A stretch of DNA of 51,886 nucleotides, counting the filler, from Candidatus Omnitrophota bacterium (GTDB lineage Bacteria > Omnitrophota > Gorgyraeia > Zapsychrales > JBDRMG01), in NCBI GenBank assembly GCA_043812495.1. It is 3 parts of 3 records of this genome, joined end to end, with 100 filler letters (N's around TTAATTAATTAA, not from the genome) between each part and the next. Parts side by side here need not be neighbours in the genome. Positions count along the whole stretch, not along the records: positions 1 to 18,958 come from JBDRMG010000059.1; 2 more parts are not named here. The stretch is one strand, 5' to 3'. This document shows positions 3,401 through 15,400 of the stretch, piece by piece; position 1 is the first letter of the stretch, and every line of letters begins with the position of its first letter. Position numbers: made by a program.

Positions 3401-6400
3401 AAGTCATTTCCCTTGTACTCACGAATGCCTACGCGAATCTCCTGGAATTTGTTCTTTTTGAATGTCTTGATGGTCTTGTCCATAGGCTCGCTCCTTACTT
3501 TGCGCTTTAAAAGTTTCGTATGATATTGGCCATGATCGCTCGGGCTAAATTGACGTTGGGAATGAGATTCCTGCGAGCGGCCACGCGAATATCAATGGTC
3601 TTTTCCGTTAATTTAGAAATGGTGACTTTGACATCATGATCGTTGACGGTCGCTTTAATTTCACCGAGCTTTTGATAATTTTCATCAACTTCTCCGATTT
3701 TTTTCAGTTGCGCATTGGCGACTTTCCATGCGTGGTTGAAATCCGTATCAATGGACGTGGTGGCATAATCGCTTGTGACGGCAACAACGCTGGCGGCCGT
3801 TACTCCGCCGACCACAACGGCCGTAGCGCAACCGCTTAAACCGATACTAACCACTGCTATAAAAATGAGAAAACGCGTCATCATGATTTTATTTCGCTTG
3901 TTTTTGTTGATAGTCAATGACAGGCTTTGTCCAAGGTGTCTGTTGATTGATCACCGCCAACTCTAGCGGACAAGCATTCGCCGGAACCGACAAAGCAAAC
4001 ATCACCATATCCACAACCGTTTCCGGCTTCATGAGTCTTTCCATCTGTTCTTGCGTGATGTCTTTGAGTTTTCCGGTCAATTCCGTATCCACAACACCCG
4101 GCAAAATCGATGTCACCTTAATCCCATGGTCTCTCATTTCCCAGAATAAACCTTTTAAGAACGCGCGCAAGCCGACTTTCAGCGAACTGTAAGTAATAAA
4201 ATTTTTCGGCAAAGGATCGCACAAAGTCGAGCCGGAAACCATATTAATAATCGCACCGCTTTTTCGCTCAATCATATGCGGGATCACCAACCGAATCAAT
4301 CGCACATATCCTAAATAATTTGTGTGCGCCAAGCGCTCGATATCTTCGAGCGGCTGTTTTTCAAAGGGATATTGACTGGAGACACCTGCATTATTGATCA
4401 GAATATCGATGGTTTTAAATTCCTTGAGCGCTGTTTCGGTGAGTTTTTGTAAATCTTCTAACTTGCTCACATCTGTCGGTAAGCCAATCACCTTGACCGA
4501 ATACTTGTTCTTAATCTCTTTTACGGCCTGATCCAATGTATCTTTTGTCCGCGCAGCCAAAATGATGTTTGCGCCATGCTCCGCCAGCTTCATGGCAATC
4601 GCTTTTCCGATGCCTTTGCTGGCTCCCGTGATAATCGCGTTTTTTCCTTTAAGATGGGACATCCAACCCTCCGTTCAATGAGCACACAAGTTACGTGACC
4701 GTAAGGGAACGTAACTTATCGGTGCGAATTGACCCAGCCCACCATTGATTCAGTGGCGGGCTGGGATAGAACAAATACAATTTAATACTTCCTTAATTTG
4801 TTTTAGTCAAAGTTTCCGGAATCACCTTCTTCGCAAAAAACGACAACGTCAGCATCAGAAGACCGATTCCCAGGAAAGTTAATTGAAAGTTCTTCTCAAC
4901 AAAAAGGCCGGCCAAAAAGAATCCGATGCCTCCGCTTAAAAATCGTATAGACGAATTCAGACTGGCGATTTCGGGACGGTATTCATCCGAAAAATCCGTT
5001 AGGACCGTTGACACACCGTTATGGCCAATGGTCCATCCGATAGAAAAAACAATCAAAATAACAGATAAAACCGCCAAAGGAAATACACCGGATAAAAGCA
5101 TTGTCGCCGCAGCCAATAACATGATCCCCAAATAACACGCCTTGACGCGTCCTTTTTTATCGGCCATGTAACCTCCGATATTTTGCCCCATGGCCCCTCC
5201 GATCGTCATGAGAAGAAATAGAAAGCTGATCGTCCATTGATCAAAATGATAAATGCGGCTCAGGTATACACCTAGCCATTTATGAATACCATGATAAAAT
5301 AAACTGATCGCAAAAATAAAGAGAAAGACATTGCGGACCGTCTCGTTTCTGATGACCTTCCCATAGTCGATGCTTCGGCCATGCTTTATTTTTATAGTTT
5401 CAAATTTAAAAAAGAATGTCAGCAGGGTAATCATGGCCGCAAGCAAAGCAGGAATCAAGAATAACCACCGCCAATTGGCTAAACCGCTTAAAAGAATACC
5501 AGCCAATGAGGAAACAAAAGCGCTGCTGAATAATATTCCGACCAAACGGCCTCTAACCTCTTTTTCAAAAGTCCTGCCTATAAGAATGAGCCCCAGGGGA
5601 ATTATGCTCCCACCGGATAGGCCCATTATAACTCTTGAACACAGGAATTGTCCAAGGGAATTCACAAAGGCACAATTCAGGCTGGAAAGGGCAAAAATGG
5701 CCATGGAACCCCCGACTATTTTACGGAAAATTATTTTCTCAGCTAATGGCGCGTACATAAGCGCACCTAACCCATAGGGAATCATATAGTAAGGTAGAAT
5801 TTTTGAGACTTGAATATCGGAAAGATTCAAATCGAGGCTGATCGTCGGAATAGCCGCGGCGATGGCCGCCACGTTAAACGAAATCGTAACGCTGCCTAAA
5901 CATAGTAATATAAATATTAATCTTTTTTCTTTAATCACAAATTACAATTTTAAGAAATTTTAATATTAAGATTAATATATATATTACTTCTAATCGGCTT
6001 CTTTTTCAATAACCTTTTTGCCGACATTTTCTTGGTGCATTTTTGTGGAAGTCGGCATCTCCCGACGCTTGATAAGACTTGGTCGGGATGCCGACTGAGC
6101 TACAAACGAGCGTCGGCACCGACCCCCGACTTTCAGTCGGGGCATCGGGACATGTCAGATTCCTTTTCAATAACTTTCTTGAAAATCTTGAGATTGTCTT
6201 GCGAATGCTTGTTGATAAATCCCACAATTTGCTCATCAGTGAATTTTTTAAACTTGGGATCCATCTCGAAGTCCTGTATCCACGTCATTAAAATTCCGTC
6301 TTCTACGAGCGTATAAAGCCATATGATTTTCATATATTTAAAAGGAAATGTCGGCTCGTTTTTTTGCGCGTAGGCCAGCATGTTTTCTTTAAAAAGCATG

Positions 6401-12400: not shown

Positions 12401-15400
12401 AATATTGATATGGTTCGGATCGATCCATCCTTTTTCGACCGATTGATTCCATAATTGAGAACCGGGAACGGGTGTCACGTAATCGAGGGCCATGATGTCC
12501 GGGTCCACATCATTAGCGACGTCCAATCGTTTTTTGATGGTAGCCTCATCGTCATCCTCAAGGCCGATCAAAACGGTTCCCACTGATGATATATTAGCTT
12601 CGCGAAGAGCTTTGACGGTCCCTTTGATTTGCGCAAGCGTTACGCCTTTTCCCTGTTTGGCCAATTGTTCATCGCTTTCCACTTCAATACCGACGAGGCC
12701 CATAAACAGGCCCGATTCATACATGAGCGGCAGTATTTCTTTATGAGCCAGCCAATCATCCGCGCGGCCCAGGCAGACCCATTTGATTTTGTTGCCGCGT
12801 TTAATCTTTAATTCGCAAAATCTTTTAACATTTTCTTTATCGACATTAAAAGCATCGTCTTGAATCACAACGACCTTGACGCCGTATGTTTTCTCCAAAA
12901 GATCCAGTTCGTCCAGTATTTTTTCTGCGGATTTACCCCGCCAGGAAATATAATCCTCCTTGCTGTTTCTTTGATCATACAAACTCCATTGATAACAAAA
13001 TGTGCACGCGCCGGGGCAGCCACGCGAGGTCAGCAATTCGGCAAAGGGTTTCCAGTAGGTGTGGCCCACATATTTATCCATCGGAAAAAGGTCATAGGCC
13101 GGCATAGGTAAATCATTTAAATTGGCCATGGGGCAGCGGTGCGGGCCCATCACGATGGACCCTTTGGAATCGCGCAAAACAAGCCCGGCAATTTTTGAAA
13201 AATCATCCGACCCGCTTTTAAGAGCATTAACTAAATCTGAAATCGTCAGCTCCCCTTCCCCCATCGCAATAAAATCAATTGGGGGATTTTGCTCTAATGT
13301 TTCTTTGCAATAGGCTGAATACCAAAGCCCGCCCATAATCACTTTTGTCTTTGGAAGAATATTTTTAATCTTTTTGGCGGTTTCATTAAAATGCCAAATC
13401 ACAGATAACCCACCCGTTGAATGCAAAAGATCGCCAAACACACAAAGATCCGGTTTGATCTCTTTGATTTGTTTTATCATTTCATCACTTGAGATCCCCA
13501 AGGCTTTAGCATCCATCACCTGCACTTCGGCAATCTTTTTCTCCCGTAAATAGGCGGCCACCTGCGCATAATATTGATTGGGGGCTTTGTGATCGCCGTG
13601 TGTGGCCCATGAACCCATGGGTGGTGTAATAAATAAAACTTTCATTTCTTTCTCCATTTTTTTACTTTTCTGGATATTGTCCTTCAAAATCACCATTATT
13701 TCTGTTGAACACATCTATATAAAATTTACACACGGCTGGGTCATCCTGCGGCATATGAAGATGAGAATCTTCTGTTGCTTTCTTCCATCGACCGTTTTCT
13801 TTTTCAAAGGATACCCATCCCTCAAAATTTTCTGTAAAAATTCCCATATCGTTTCTTCCGTATATAATGACCGCATTTTCTTCATTGGCCAAAACTTTCT
13901 TTATTACAATAGTATCTTCATTTCCTACATCGGCTAATCTTAACTCAAAGTTATTCCTGCTTTCTTCTTCTGAAACCATAGGTTGTTCATTATATAATTT
14001 ATCCGACTCTGCAAATTCCTTTAAATAACTAGCCGTATATCTTTTCTCTACTTCAGTAAATTCTTTCCAATTATTCGTAAGATTAATGTCTCTTAGGTAA
14101 GATCTAAACATATCTACAACTTCTTTTTGATTTTGATCATAATTTTCTTGAGCATAAATCAACATAGGTACCGTAAAGATCAAGATAAAAACAAGTAAAA
14201 TTCTCATCTTTTCCTCCTAAAAAACTTGATAATATTTGTTATTACAAAAATAATGGCCGTTCTAGGGCTTTTTAGTCAGAACCAACCCGCGACCAAAGGT
14301 TTGCCGCCGGGCGTTTGGTCCGTGCAAATATGTTTGCATTGGGTGTATTCAAACAATCCGTCCATACCTAGTTCTCTTCCGAAACCGCTTTGTTTATATC
14401 CCCCGTAAGGGGCTTCGTTATAAAACCCGCCGTAGGTATTGATCCACACCGTGCCGCAGCGCAGCTGCCTCGCCACTCTCTTGGCTTTTTTCTGGTCTTT
14501 ACTCCATACACAAGCAGCTAAACCAAACTTCGTGTCATTGGCAATCTTGACGGCTTCGTCTTCCCGAGAAAACTTTATCACGCTTAAAACAGGGCCGAAT
14601 ATCTCTTCCTGGGCAATAGACATATCATTTTTGACATCGGCAAATATTGTCGGTTCGATATAATACCCCTGATTCATCCCCTCGGGAACATTTCCCCCGC
14701 AAAGAAGCTTGGCGCCTTCCTGTATTCCTTTCTCAATGTAAGTCAAAACTGTTTCCAATTGCTTTTTATTGGCAAGCGGCCCAAATTCCGTTTGATAATC
14801 AAGGGCATTACCGATTTTTAGCTTCTTAGTTTTCTCGCCTAAGGCATTTAAAAACTTCTCGTAAATACTTTCCTCTAAAAGCAATCTTGATCCGGCCGTG
14901 CACATCTGTCCCTGATTCATGAATATCGCCGAAAGAGTTCCGCCTAAAGCGGTCTCAAAATCGCAATCAGCAAACACAATATTCGGTGATTTTCCGCCAA
15001 GTTCCAGAGTCAACTTCTTTGTGTTTCCAGAGGCCAGACGCATGACGTCTTGTCCTGTTTCGGTCCCGCCTGTAAAGCTTATCTTATCAACCAGTTCGCT
15101 TTTGATGAGTTCGCTTGCAACGGCATGGTCTTTGATGGAAACAATGTTCAGGACGCCTTCCGGAAGACCGACGCCGGCTATTAACTTCGCCAAATACATT
15201 ATGGAGACGCTCGCTTGCGAAGACGGCTTAAAGATGACGGTATTGCCCGCAATCAAAGCCGGAGCCACTTTCCATGCAAACATGATTAGGGGATAATTCC
15301 ATGTGATGATCGCTCCCACGACTCCGATTGGTTCCCGTTCAGATATGCTTTCGACAGGTGCGGCCGCGCGGTTATTTTTTGATTCAAGTTCTTTAGAAAC

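Follow-up and report, generated by a model that had tools for sequence, protein, structure and literature searches.

Described relatives of the locus

Type II polyketide synthases (PKSs) outside the Actinobacteria account for AQ-256, clostrubin, wexrubicin, pyxidicycline, and the dendrubins (PMC7693217); the genome-wide survey's note overstated their rarity by calling such products all but unknown there. The ancestral non-actinomycete systems, which are Photorhabdus AntA-I (AQ-256) and those for dendrubin, clostrubin, wexrubicin, and resistomycin-type compounds, combine a ketosynthase (KS), chain-length factor (CLF), and acyl carrier protein (ACP) with TcmN- and OxyN-type cyclases (PMC7693217). 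The same combination is found in our window, which is the whole stretch of DNA that we analyzed (51,886 nucleotides, filler included) from a Candidatus Omnitrophota bacterium of the order Zapsychrales (GCA_043812495.1). At its active site the window's CLF carries Asp, like AntE, in place of the priming Gln of actinomycete CLFs, and it shares the DRAS and GGW motifs with CLFs from Bacillus/Priestia, Ktedonobacteraceae, and Azospirillum; the CoA/ACP ligase of the pathway resembles AntG. However, the window's TcmN-type protein is monomeric, whereas ant and den have a didomain. Also unlike the ancestral PKSs, the Zapsychrales cluster lacks a PPTase, adds B12-radical SAM, ApbA-like, and nucleoside-trimming genes, and appears to be inherited vertically, with conservation at the level of FabF. 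Two KS rows from C. beijerinckii in the McBride supplement, possibly the clostrubin KS, lack the motifs of the window's family, so "clostrubin-like" would not mean close orthology.

The closest described relatives are the KS/CLF pairs of Ca. Desulfofervidus auxilii (DauA/B; Cummings 2019, PMC6638757; McBride 2023 supplement) and Ca. Velamenicoccus archaeovorus (McBride supplement), which belong to the window's family and share the motifs AICGTKYMEEEF and GGWLYAETELRD with it. As the survey had cautioned, these are already catalogued (McBride 2023), but only as KS-CLF pairs and without a product, and the three pairs found to be soluble in E. coli did not include DauA/B (PMC6638757). Desulfofervidus shares the gene order radical SAM, ApbA, KS, CLF, ACP, cyclase, aromatase, SDR, amidohydrolase. 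Unlike in the window, its core is accompanied by an aldehyde:ferredoxin oxidoreductase, and its trimming module stands apart in an operon that also carries MMPL, LolA, and DUF1302 genes.

The trimming module itself has two kinds of relatives. First, the same four enzyme families, in pathway order, are known from the DHAP shunt or 5-deoxyribose salvage (MtnP or DrdK, MtnA/DrdI, Ald2/DrdA) and from the route by which Streptomyces cattleya forms fluoroacetate (PNP, isomerase, aldolase, and aldehyde dehydrogenase; PMC7688953). In contrast to these, the window has a hexameric-type phosphorylase whose His, Arg, and Glu are replaced, a second, dead isomerase subunit, and an SCP2 domain on the aldolase; its module also duplicates housekeeping genes and is lost with the PKS.

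Second, MqnE and MqnB perform a radical adenosylation and then remove adenine. HpnH and HpnG form adenosylhopane and then ribosylhopane (PMC12324291). As in the window, a radical SAM enzyme stands beside a PNP-family enzyme, and the scaffold is hydrophobic or aromatic, as it would be in the window, but these systems keep the sugar carbons, which the window's aldolase would cut off. Squalene-hopene cyclase was absent from all 12 genomes searched.

The PKS is the middle of a longer operon

The survey described a minimal, compact cluster at 3889..13696. These borders are too narrow: the operon has about 18 genes, spans 714-18958, and continues past the contig end, with the PKS cluster in its middle part (Table 1). 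All of the genes that the survey named are intact minus-strand open reading frames (families by Pfam and NCBIfam), and its span also holds the ApbA-like reductase, the DUF2621 protein, and an AT-rich orphan, which it did not list. Beyond that span lie the amidohydrolase and a module of phosphorylase, isomerase pair, aldolase/SCP2, and aldehyde dehydrogenase. The end of another contig (C1) carries PadR, an acyl-CoA ligase, and a second phosphorylase fragment; PadR-ligase-phosphorylase is the arrangement in 10/10 upstream regions, and the ligase and PadR on C1 probably continue the operon.

Table 1. Genes of the operon in the window
Feature	Coordinates	Strand	Details
Amidohydrolase_2, aromatic-acid decarboxylase type	714..1709	-	PF04909; true start probably near 1631
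PC4-like small protein	3250..3483	-	PF02229; often between SDR and amidohydrolase
DUF3568 lipoprotein, accessory	3507..3917	-	PF12092; minority of loci
Short-chain dehydrogenase/reductase (SDR)	3889..4662	-	YxxxK intact; 19/20 loci
MFS transporter	4793..5938	-	PF07690; 18/20 loci
Monodomain TcmN-type aromatase/cyclase	6133..6594	-	TcmN match E 1.6e-26
AT-rich orphan	6624-7031
PF04199 (OxyN-type) cyclase	7154..7963	-	HxGxHxDxPxH motif; 20/20 loci
Acyl carrier protein (ACP)	8048..8284	-	PF00550; Ser36 in DST motif
Chain-length factor (CLF)	8379..9611	-	D161/D302/N339; CLF clade in tree
Ketosynthase alpha (KS)	9612..10874	-	C170, H310, H347; KS-alpha clade in tree
ApbA/PanE-like 2-oxoacid reductase, dedicated paralogue	10887..11939	-	20/20 loci
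DUF2621-like small protein	11896..12210	-	PF11084 match at E 2e-5, under the cut-off; likely true start about 12150; 20/20 loci
B12-binding radical SAM enzyme, type 1 of pathway-specific family	12173..13714	-	true start probably 13642-13654
Aldehyde dehydrogenase	14276..15772	-	PF00171; Cys291, Glu257; 20/20 loci
Class II aldolase fused to SCP2 lipid-binding domain	15773..16768	-	SCP2 at about aa 205-331
MtnA/eIF2B-like protein, truncated, C-terminal domain only	16765..17343	-	has lost its catalytic residues; likely true start about 17250; 18/20 loci
MtnA-like isomerase	17237..18205	-	retains the catalytic Cys/Asp; altered pocket for the 5-substituent
Nucleoside phosphorylase, hexameric NP-I type, remodelled site	18353..18958	-	cut by contig end

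The amidohydrolase is the last conserved gene of the operon (16/20 loci), and its top PDB matches are 5-carboxyvanillate and ACMS decarboxylases (E 1e-25). By inspection, the PC4-like protein belongs to the same family as a cluster (U0) that is found in 26/62 loci. A separate, stronger ApbA is encoded elsewhere in four of the five genomes tested, including the PKS-positive G109. Two of the survey's labels, ketoreductase and exporter, are unproven: the SDR, which would be a tailoring step, is generic, with no polyketide ketoreductase named among the best 60 of its 98 PDB matches, and every NCBIfam match of the MFS transporter is below its cut-off. The MFS transporter is also compatible with a secreted metabolite.

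The aromatic PKS core is intact

The survey held that the KS keeps its motifs while its partner has lost the catalytic residues, and this is confirmed: the sites of the KS triad C170/H310/H347 are D161/D302/N339 in the CLF. Asp/Asp/Asn is invariant in 49 distinct CLF orthologues; the Cys and second His of the KS are invariant in 33/33, and the first His in 32/33 (one alignment gap). The CLF's gatekeeper positions are W110, A113, and L117, and the KS stop codon abuts the CLF start. The aromatase residues at what we take to be TcmN positions W28, F32, Y35, W65, S67, R69, and M91 are invariant in 29/29.

We also considered whether the KS pair could resemble KS/CLF but belong to an unusual fatty-acid system, such as an aryl-polyene or ladderane-like one. 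The closest solved relatives of the KS are the actinorhodin KS (1tqy_A, E 7e-119) and 6smo_B, but the highest PDB matches of the CLF are FabF enzymes, with the act CLF ranked lower. NaPDoS2 labels many non-actinobacterial CLFs as FAS-like (PMC10132072), and SCP2, the ligase, and MMPL indicate lipid handling. However, in a tree without labelled aryl-polyene or ladderane KSs, the KS falls in the KS-alpha clade (21 rows, SH-aLRT 95) and its partner in the CLF clade (27 rows, SH-aLRT 100), both apart from 21 FabF-like rows. Two types of cyclase with intact residues are present, no dehydratase or enoyl reductase is among the conserved cluster genes, and the TIGR04072 score of 80 falls short of the cut-off, which is 360. 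We regard a non-aromatic system as extremely unlikely. The KS-alpha, CLF, ACP, and cyclases form an intact type II (aromatic) PKS core by tree and residues, as the survey had proposed, and it is very probable that the synthase works.

Conservation and loss in Zapsychrales

The survey's "about half of the order" was too low. The CLF is found in 111 of 168 genomes (69 of 91 high-quality genomes) and the B12-radical SAM family in 121/168. CLF, radical SAM, and fusion-type aldolase occur together in 104/168 genomes, at least one of these three markers in 128/168, and none in 40/168. Four CLF-positive genomes (G068, G130, G156, and G157) have no radical SAM match. Because the 40 pathway-free genomes, which include whole genera, live without it, the pathway is not essential.

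Across the order, the CLF is as conserved as FabF (66-79% versus 63-75%; 74-85% for the KS), and the gene set is kept despite rearrangement in other orders. In all six PKS-negative genomes examined, a subset of 11 scored as having a single-domain aldolase, the site at which the operon starts in positive genomes is occupied by an aldolase of 188-205 aa that lacks SCP2. This remnant suggests inheritance with loss. Together with the marker survey, it points to the PKS as a lineage trait with secondary losses, in agreement with the survey's reading.

The distribution also bears on whether the product might be a membrane respiratory quinone that replaces menaquinone. There was no MqnA/D family match in 5/5 genomes, a BchE-like oxidation could yield a quinone, and the SCP2 domains of UbiJ and UbiT carry quinone precursors. 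However, quinone users do not follow the cluster: a NuoH-family match is present in 3/5 genomes, NuoH is absent from the complete PKS-positive G109 but present in the PKS-negative G020, and cytochrome bd is in 1/5. Respiratory genes are patchy in Zapsychrales, some of which have menaquinone genes (PMC10066038). We consider a quinone quite unlikely.

A duplicated and remodelled nucleoside-trimming module

The module duplicates housekeeping salvage genes. An ordinary MtnA lies apart from the cluster in G000, G109, and 11/11 further module genomes, and G109 also has an ordinary MTAP. In the cluster phosphorylase, Met, Met, and Val replace the His, Arg, and Glu of uridine phosphorylase (YHLQ, SRE, EME), and 7/7 deltaproteobacterial copies lack the three residues as well; losing three conserved residues could also mean reduced or different chemistry. 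The isomerase has KTRAFGQ in place of VRGAPAI and lacks the loop after CN. Catalytic residues are kept in isomerase A, the aldolase, and the dehydrogenase. SCP2 is the sole PF02036 match in both PKS-positive genomes tested and is absent from all three negative ones tested; in split alignments it is more conserved than the aldolase domain (67-77% versus 48-58%).

The best-matching families of the radical SAM enzyme, BchE (204 bits) and HpnJ (164 bits), are both below cut-off and are not methylases, and its closest folds are AprD4 and OxsB, then MgmA and TsrM, so the survey's "methylase" is unproven. Its model reaches a TM of only 0.3 against MqnE. The window's type 1 enzyme accompanies the KS core, and extra type 1 copies stand alone elsewhere in many genomes. 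The enzyme of the module-only operons is of type 2, so feeding the module in Zapsychrales would fall to type 1.

One possible, if doubtful, explanation is an aromatic PKS with a dedicated waste line. The radical SAM enzyme would oxidise, cyclise, or methylate a polyphenol, using several SAM per product, perhaps by a BchE-like oxidation with oxygen from water; a DHAP-shunt-like module would remove the inhibitory 5'-deoxyadenosine, and SCP2 would do no more than carry or scaffold the product. The BchE and HpnJ matches are consistent with this, as is the lack of a monooxygenase in the cluster (an Azospirillum cluster has four), and the anaerobic oxidation catalysed by BchE involves six electrons (preprint 10.64898/2026.04.29.721654). 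By fold, the aldolase matches the B. thuringiensis aldolase for deoxyribose salvage (6btd), and its domain outlasts the PKS, with G113 and G115 having MtnA and MTAP as well; because the domain survives that loss, it has an ordinary function too. However, all 13 module genomes tested already have a housekeeping MtnA, and the remodelled sites, the dead isomerase subunit, and the SCP2 fusion, which are kept in two phyla, are not needed for plain 5'-deoxyadenosine.

Relatives in Desulfofervidus-class deltaproteobacteria

The pathway is not confined to Omnitrophota: KS orthologues with 65-72% identity occur in 5/11 deltaproteobacterial genomes tested, one of which has proteins named Ca. Desulfofervidus auxilii. 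In one genome of this group (G551), the KS is 70% and the CLF 62-63% identical to the window's. In the class of G551, aldolase-SCP2 is present in 7/7 genomes but the CLF in only 3/7, and the module lies beside a sister radical SAM gene, ligases, and MMPL, LolA-like, and DUF1302 genes. Core loci of this class carry aldehyde:ferredoxin oxidoreductase, with a glycyl radical enzyme in 2/4.

These genomes bear on the idea that the module makes a starter unit, by trimming a 5'-substituted adenosine to an X-acetate that the ligase loads on the ACP; ligase loading would be needed because an Asp-type CLF cannot prime by decarboxylation. The genes from ligase through phosphorylase, isomerases, and aldolase to dehydrogenase lie in order upstream of the KS, preceded by PadR, and the Asp-type AntDE needs AntG for full output (PMC6638757). 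However, G745, G622, and G589 (drafts, completeness not stated) have the module and its ligase but no KS orthologue, in G551 the module is 600 kb from the KS, and in these genomes it is tied to an envelope transport system. This idea is unlikely to be correct.

Proposed pathway

Our best explanation, which we judge evenly balanced between right and wrong, is a pathway that needs no oxygen and comprises about 18 genes; it would make an aromatic polyketide of lipid-like character that serves a housekeeping-type role, and its module would trim a bulky 5'-substituted adenosine. What the sequences show is an intact KS/CLF/ACP accompanied by cyclases of the monodomain TcmN and OxyN types, together with fixed gene linkage, FabF-level conservation, and co-loss. 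Family knowledge suggests the chemistry: an ANL ligase would prime the ACP with an acyl starter, the role proposed for AntG; KS/CLF would extend it with malonyl units; the two cyclases would yield a non-reduced polyphenol; the amidohydrolase would decarboxylate it; and the SDR and ApbA-like enzymes would reduce carbonyls. The survey expected a small product, but a lipid-like molecule is suggested by SCP2, the FadD-like ligase, and, in relatives, the MMPL/LolA/DUF1302 system, and a lipid-like housekeeping product seems fairly likely. No product was found in our literature search.

Our boldest inference is that clearing 5'-deoxyadenosine is not the main task of the module, from its phosphorylase and isomerase pair through aldolase-SCP2 to the aldehyde dehydrogenase. 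We lean slightly towards a non-standard, bulky substrate, namely a hydrophobic 5'-substituted adenosine (R-Ado), which would be converted via R-ribose-1-P and R-ribulose-1-P to DHAP and R-CH2-CHO and then to R-CH2-COOH. Fluoroacetate formation in S. cattleya runs through these same four steps. R-Ado would most likely come from the B12-radical SAM family, by addition of the 5'-deoxyadenosyl radical to the scaffold, but radical adenosylation as the source is only tentatively proposed: we are aware of no adenosylating radical SAM enzyme that binds B12, and HpnH and MqnE are not known to do so. We found no adenosylation literature that names both HpnH and MqnE.

Overall, uncultured Omnitrophota and a group of sulfate reducers have this pathway in common, and in the Omnitrophota it is conserved as tightly as a fatty-acid gene. 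The aromatic PKS would be one part of a larger, oxygen-independent pathway, and the remodelling of the nucleoside-trimming enzymes hints that a greasy molecule may undergo a kind of radical chemistry not yet described.

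The polyketide synthase core

Every gene that the genome-wide survey's note had named in this cluster is an intact ORF on the minus strand. The KS keeps its catalytic residues (C170, H310, and H347), and the partner lacks the catalytic cysteine and both histidines, as had been described: D161, D302, and N339 occupy those sites, with D/D/N in 49 of 49 orthologs. The gap from KS to CLF is zero (adjacent coupling). In a quick tree of 70 rows, the KS lies inside a KS-alpha clade with Streptomyces KS-alpha (21 rows, SH-aLRT 95), and the partner lies inside a CLF clade (27 rows, SH-aLRT 100), apart from FabF-like rows and from the FabF of the source genome, G000. 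SH-aLRT is the only support measure for our KS and CLF trees, all quick trees, and they hold no characterized clostrubin, dendrubin, Ant, aryl-polyene, or ladderane sequence. The closest solved structures to the KS are the actinorhodin KS and 6smo_B; those closest to the CLF are FabF enzymes, with the actinorhodin CLF ranking lower.

At the active-site position of the CLF, the glutamine of the actinomycete priming type is absent and all 49 orthologs have aspartate. AntE also has aspartate there, according to the available part of PMC6638757, so this residue excludes only the classical actinomycete subtype. We also considered whether a tryptophan gatekeeper indicates a short chain, and dropped this call because the W/A/L combination is common to CLFs from Bacillus, Ktedonobacteraceae, and a Streptomyces.

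The ACP has the serine of a DSx motif (Ser36), and a single ACPS-family gene on contig C21 of G000 is the candidate PPTase. No malonyl transacylase (PF00698) was found in G000, which is 90% complete and whose fabG-acpP-fabF contig stops just upstream of fabG. The aromatase aligns with TcmN at E = 1.6e-26, and seven residues of its pocket are the same in all 29 orthologs; pocket residues are intact in both aromatase/cyclases, and the PF04199 protein carries the metal motif of OxyN-type cyclases. Neither the absence of a dehydratase from the conserved genes nor the presence of two cyclases fits the aryl polyene or ladderane type. The core is of the same KS-CLF-ACP-TcmN-OxyN kind that PMC7693217, in the passages available, terms ancestral. 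Judging by sequence, the PKS core belongs to a known kind, and to that extent the earlier reading of the cluster stands; its compact borders do not, and its "methylase" is a candidate. The whole pathway is an uncharacterized variant whose chemistry is testable and possibly new.

G000 also contains a second dead KS (TGFTAS, NANST, and GECFS), followed by FabG-like and FabZ-like genes. It sits inside a riboflavin gene block, and no active KS adjoins it.

Extent of the operon

We surveyed 20 loci picked from CLF-positive genomes of the order, several of which end short of the outer genes. The aldolase, dehydrogenase, DUF2621, ApbA, KS, CLF, ACP, and cyclase genes are present in all 20; isomerase A, the radical SAM enzyme, the aromatase, and the SDR in 19; and isomerase B and the MFS protein in 18. 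The amidohydrolase is found in 16 and the phosphorylase in 13, where the early ends of several loci must be kept in mind. The gene order is that of the window without exception. The cluster had been called compact, but these loci keep DUF2621, ApbA, and the genes of the module (phosphorylase, isomerases A and B, aldolase-SCP2 fusion, and aldehyde dehydrogenase) alongside the PKS core in fixed order. In orders outside Zapsychrales, the gene set is retained and the order is rearranged.

Upstream, a PadR regulator, an ANL ligase, and the phosphorylase occur in 10 of 10 regions. In G000, contig C1 ends with the PadR and ligase genes and then a fragment of a phosphorylase, which shares 74% identity with the fragment cut off by the end of contig C59; synteny suggests that C1 and C59 join. 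Contig C59 spans positions 1-18958, and sequence past 18958 gives no evidence of linkage because the contigs are joined only by N-linkers. The phosphorylase occurs in two tandem copies in one relative (G146). The solved structures closest to the ligase are fatty-acyl-, feruloyl-, and succinylbenzoyl-CoA ligases, and those closest to the amidohydrolase are aromatic-acid decarboxylases.

We asked whether the cluster's ApbA is the cell's PanE. PanC is present in all five genomes tested, and four of them, including G109, have a separate, better-scoring ApbA, so we rejected this role. In G000, the cluster ApbA is the only copy found and may have a dual role.

The intergenic gaps of the operon often hold inserts in relatives (see the table). 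The two AT-rich orphan ORFs of the window are insertions, and the nucleotidyltransferase pair resembles a toxin-antitoxin passenger. Across 62 loci, optional genes encode a 169-amino-acid protein (18 loci; its gene also persists next to the remnant aldolases of G115 and G117), a SnoaL/NTF2-like protein (12 loci), and a tandem TIGR04076 protein (6 loci; also every Desulfofervidus-class PKS locus). A variant cluster (L044, on contig C25 of G130) retains the module and KS-CLF-ACP-cyclase, and has a distant cyclase, a distant radical SAM enzyme, and other SDRs in place of the window's radical SAM type, aromatase, MFS protein, and amidohydrolase.

Features of the window and of related loci (L numbers, extracted loci)
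Feature	Location	Strand	Remark
Small partner of nucleotidyltransferase	1918-2169	-	Between PC4-like gene and amidohydrolase
Nucleotidyltransferase, AbiEii/DUF6036-like	2387-3099	-	Between PC4-like gene and amidohydrolase
AT-rich orphan ORFs	6624-7031, 13662-14207	-	30-32% GC; no relative in 62 loci
Inverted repeat, 34 nt (hairpin)	18264-18334		Between phosphorylase and isomerase
N runs	18959-19058, 42841-42940		Separate the three contigs
Long co-directional run, contig C62	19436-36977	+	Prepilin-type gene first; unlinked to cluster
Optional genes between DUF2621, ApbA, and KS	L057:7114-7620, L066:7814-8272, L036:11973-12632		In relatives
Second dead KS, FabG-like, FabZ-like	L230:6221-8760		G000, contig C14
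Third context of aldolase-SCP2	L229:1794-11804		G547
Desulfofervidus-class PKS loci	L251:7171-12483, L254:6403-9698, L255		Radical SAM gene flanked by redox genes

Distribution and inheritance

Of the order's 168 genomes, 111 have a CLF ortholog (66-79% identity); among the 91 high-quality ones, 69 do. Across the phylum, 134 of 401 sampled genomes have a CLF, and 133 of these belong to the same class. Within the order, the radical SAM enzyme is present in 121 genomes and the aldolase in 134. CLF, radical SAM enzyme, and fusion-type aldolase occur together in 104 genomes, at least one of the markers in 128, and none in 40; this tally treats 11 weak aldolase matches as single-domain. As a control, FabF is 63-75% identical (55 of 61 genomes), and the KS is 74-85% identical. 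In a search of genome contigs for the KS/CLF family, at least 22 orthologs and at least 58 FabF-like loci were among the 80 matches listed.

The six PKS-negative genomes that we examined, from two families (G037, G028, G117, G115, G072, and G071), have an aldolase of 188-205 amino acids without SCP2. This remnant comes directly after a lipoprotein gene, the one that PadR follows in positive genomes. Vertical inheritance, with at least two deletions in which the aldolase domain was left in place, would explain this most simply. In the CLF tree, the order groups together (37 rows, support of 92), and families f2 and f7 are recovered. The remnant at a constant site and the unity of the order both agree with the earlier view of a lineage trait rather than a one-off transfer. 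Small-scale exchange may have occurred, since f9, f12, and f14 are not resolved.

The pathway in a second phylum

Aldolase-SCP2 fusions are also present in 11 of 251 genomes of another phylum, and proteins of several of the 11 are named as Ca. Desulfofervidus auxilii or Deltaproteobacteria. Five of these genomes (G745, G655, G551, G622, and G589) have an operon that combines the phosphorylase, both isomerases, and the aldolase with genes for a radical SAM enzyme, MMPL, and a LolA-like/DUF1329 protein, along with DUF1302 and ligase genes where the contig reaches. The dehydrogenase is absent from the module loci of G622 and G589. Sets of DUF1302, DUF1329, and RND proteins are described as monoterpene efflux systems in the available part of PMC6394551, and as probably exporting an envelope component in that of 10.1101/072470.

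KS orthologs (65-72%) occur in 5 of the 11 fusion-bearing genomes. In the class of G551, three of seven genomes have a CLF and all seven have the fusion. G637 has an entire cluster of the Omnitrophota-like kind and also a PPTase. The fusions of G686, G519, and G547 have no phosphorylase or isomerase genes nearby.

The locus in G547 represents a third context for the fusion: MarR, MMPL, LolA-like, DUF1302, zinc dehydrogenase, DeoC/LacD-family aldolase, aldolase-SCP2, and ligase genes form a single run, and none of the genes nearby encodes a phosphorylase, an isomerase, or a radical SAM enzyme. In the Desulfofervidus-class PKS loci, the radical SAM gene is flanked by genes for an FAD oxidoreductase, a flavodoxin-like iron-sulfur protein, and an aldehyde:ferredoxin oxidoreductase. 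In G655 and G715, the PKS loci also include a type 2 radical SAM enzyme (see below) and a glycyl radical enzyme with its activase, which score below all family cutoffs.

A remodeled nucleoside module

The complete genome of G109 encodes an ordinary MTAP and MtnA in addition to the cluster copies. The ordinary pair is retained in the PKS-negative genomes G113 and G115, where the cluster copies are absent, and an ordinary MtnA is present in 11 of 11 further module genomes. The module appears not to be housekeeping salvage.

Within the cluster, isomerase A and the aldolase keep their family residues, and the phosphorylase lacks three. Compared with solved uridine and MTA phosphorylases, the histidine of YHLQ and the arginine of SRE are replaced by methionine and the glutamate of EME by valine, in all 31 full-length copies. 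We take these histidine, arginine, and glutamate residues to bind the 5'-OH, the phosphate, and the 2',3'-OH, respectively. Isomerase A, of the MtnA type, retains Arg, Cys, Asp, and Lys, has RAFGQF instead of RGAPAI, lacks the loop after the cysteine, and falls below the MtnA cutoff (220 versus 279 bits). Isomerase B is a catalytically dead C-terminal half, and the two would form a heterodimer. The class II aldolase retains Glu and three His, its longest invariant run lies in SCP2, and its structural model has two domains, the C-terminal one matching SCP2 clusters. The remodeled motifs are also present in the copies from the second phylum.

Fluoroacetate formation uses four enzyme families of the module in the same order (PMC7688953, as far as its available text goes), and the DHAP shunt, from partial sources, uses the module's families minus the dehydrogenase. 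Most likely, the module would act on an adenosine with a hydrophobic 5' substituent and turn it into the correspondingly substituted acetate. The main rival is waste disposal, that is, a dedicated line that clears the 5'-deoxyadenosine formed from SAM; we consider this possible, but would not expect it.

The B12-radical SAM enzyme and a proposed pathway

The B12-radical SAM enzymes are of two sister types: type 1, found in the window, adjoins the KS core, and type 2 (37-40% identical) adjoins the module in the Desulfofervidus-class bacteria. Together they form a compact family against a background of about 30% identity. Given this split, we rejected the idea that type 1 travels with the module instead of the KS.

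Type 1 had been called a methylase. It does have a B12-binding domain and CxxxCxxC, but the best families and folds are non-methylases, and all are distant. The best NCBIfam matches, BchE (204 versus 481 bits) and HpnJ (164 versus 578 bits), are both under the cutoff, and the structural model (pLDDT 93) matches AprD4, OxsB, MgmA, and TsrM, with identities of 16-19%. At position +2 from the last cysteine, 41 of 44 sequences have Glu and 3 have Gln, with Trp at +3; at the +2 place, TokK has Trp and TsrM has Glu (PMC9204698, in part). Type 1 lacks a TokK-type Trp at +2, but TsrM has Glu there, so type 1 stays a candidate methylase.

Free-standing copies of type 1 (L157-L166) are of two kinds: one (50-54%) neighbors a TetR regulator gene in all 7 of its loci, and the other (66-67%) neighbors two-component genes and an anaerobic ribonucleotide reductase in all 3. 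Subtypes of the cluster copies (about 80%, 67%, and 60%) are scattered across families, which suggests paralog replacement.

Family knowledge and the AntG/AntE precedent (PMC6638757, in part) point to ligase-primed, non-reducing synthesis of an aromatic polyketide, which would be followed by decarboxylation and reduction. The most economical source of the module's substrate would be radical adenosylation by the B12-radical SAM enzyme. Three points count against this: type 1 follows the KS and not the module, the aldolase also has an ordinary role, and we know of no B12-binding enzyme that adenosylates. HpnH/HpnG provide a precedent for radical adenosylation, according to the accessible part of PMC12324291. 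With low confidence, we propose that the 5'-deoxyadenosyl radical is added by a B12-radical SAM family confined to this pathway. The radical's target would be the aromatic polyketide or, where sulfate reducers have the module alone, a hydrophobic molecule that is imported or derived from fatty acids; the module would then cut the adenosine back to a carboxymethyl group, and the product would be an undescribed envelope lipid or cofactor. Our search of the literature, mostly open papers, found none that tie the isomerase, polyketide, aldolase, and radical SAM enzyme in a gene cluster, and no paper linking adenosylation with HpnH and MqnE.

We also considered a hopanoid substrate made in the cell and rejected it: squalene-hopene cyclase was found in none of 12 genomes. 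Foreign hopanoids may be taken up. That the product is a respiratory quinone is not supported, being weakened by marker surveys in five genomes and by PMC10066038, as far as its available text goes.

Prior reports and implications

McBride 2023, in the parts available, reports KS-CLF matches in Ca. Omnitrophica, V. archaeovorus, and D. auxilii and gives neither their context nor a product. "Polyketide" is absent from the available passages of four papers on Omnitrophota or quinones, including PMC10066038. A Cariaco preprint, in the portion available, reports expressed Omnitrophota clusters as well as ladderane-type calls and does not mention type II PKSs, and the available passages of PMC13685256 cover characterized pairs only. 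McBride 2023 also lists, in the same parts, "archaeal" PKSs from Ca. Methanoperedenaceae GB37/GB50 (LR991655 and LR991656) that are nearly identical to those of D. auxilii in sequence and position. GB37/GB50-labeled proteins fall into the same 90% clusters as D. auxilii proteins on 2.54-Mb contigs. A mislabeled bacterial genome probably accounts for the published evidence of type II PKSs in archaea.

Secondary-metabolite clusters of patchy occurrence are the setting in which aromatic PKSs are known. In this case, most of an order and much of a class of anaerobes with reduced genomes appear to have inherited one vertically. FabF-level conservation together with vertical inheritance argues for a structural or physiological molecule, which is a possible lipid biomarker for Omnitrophota. 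If the module acts on an adenosylated scaffold, this would be a new reaction for the cobalamin-dependent radical SAM enzymes, a group with few non-methylating members, and "adenosylate-and-trim" would be an undescribed, oxygen-independent means of C-C functionalization.

The same pathway is present in Ca. Desulfofervidus auxilii, and a KS is listed for Ca. Velamenicoccus archaeovorus. D. auxilii has been grown in culture or enrichment, as has V. archaeovorus according to sources seen in part, so the product can be sought directly. If our proposal is correct, Omnitrophota nanobacteria would have this product in common with the sulfate reducer that partners thermophilic methane-oxidizing archaea, and species without the PKS would finish a scavenged precursor.
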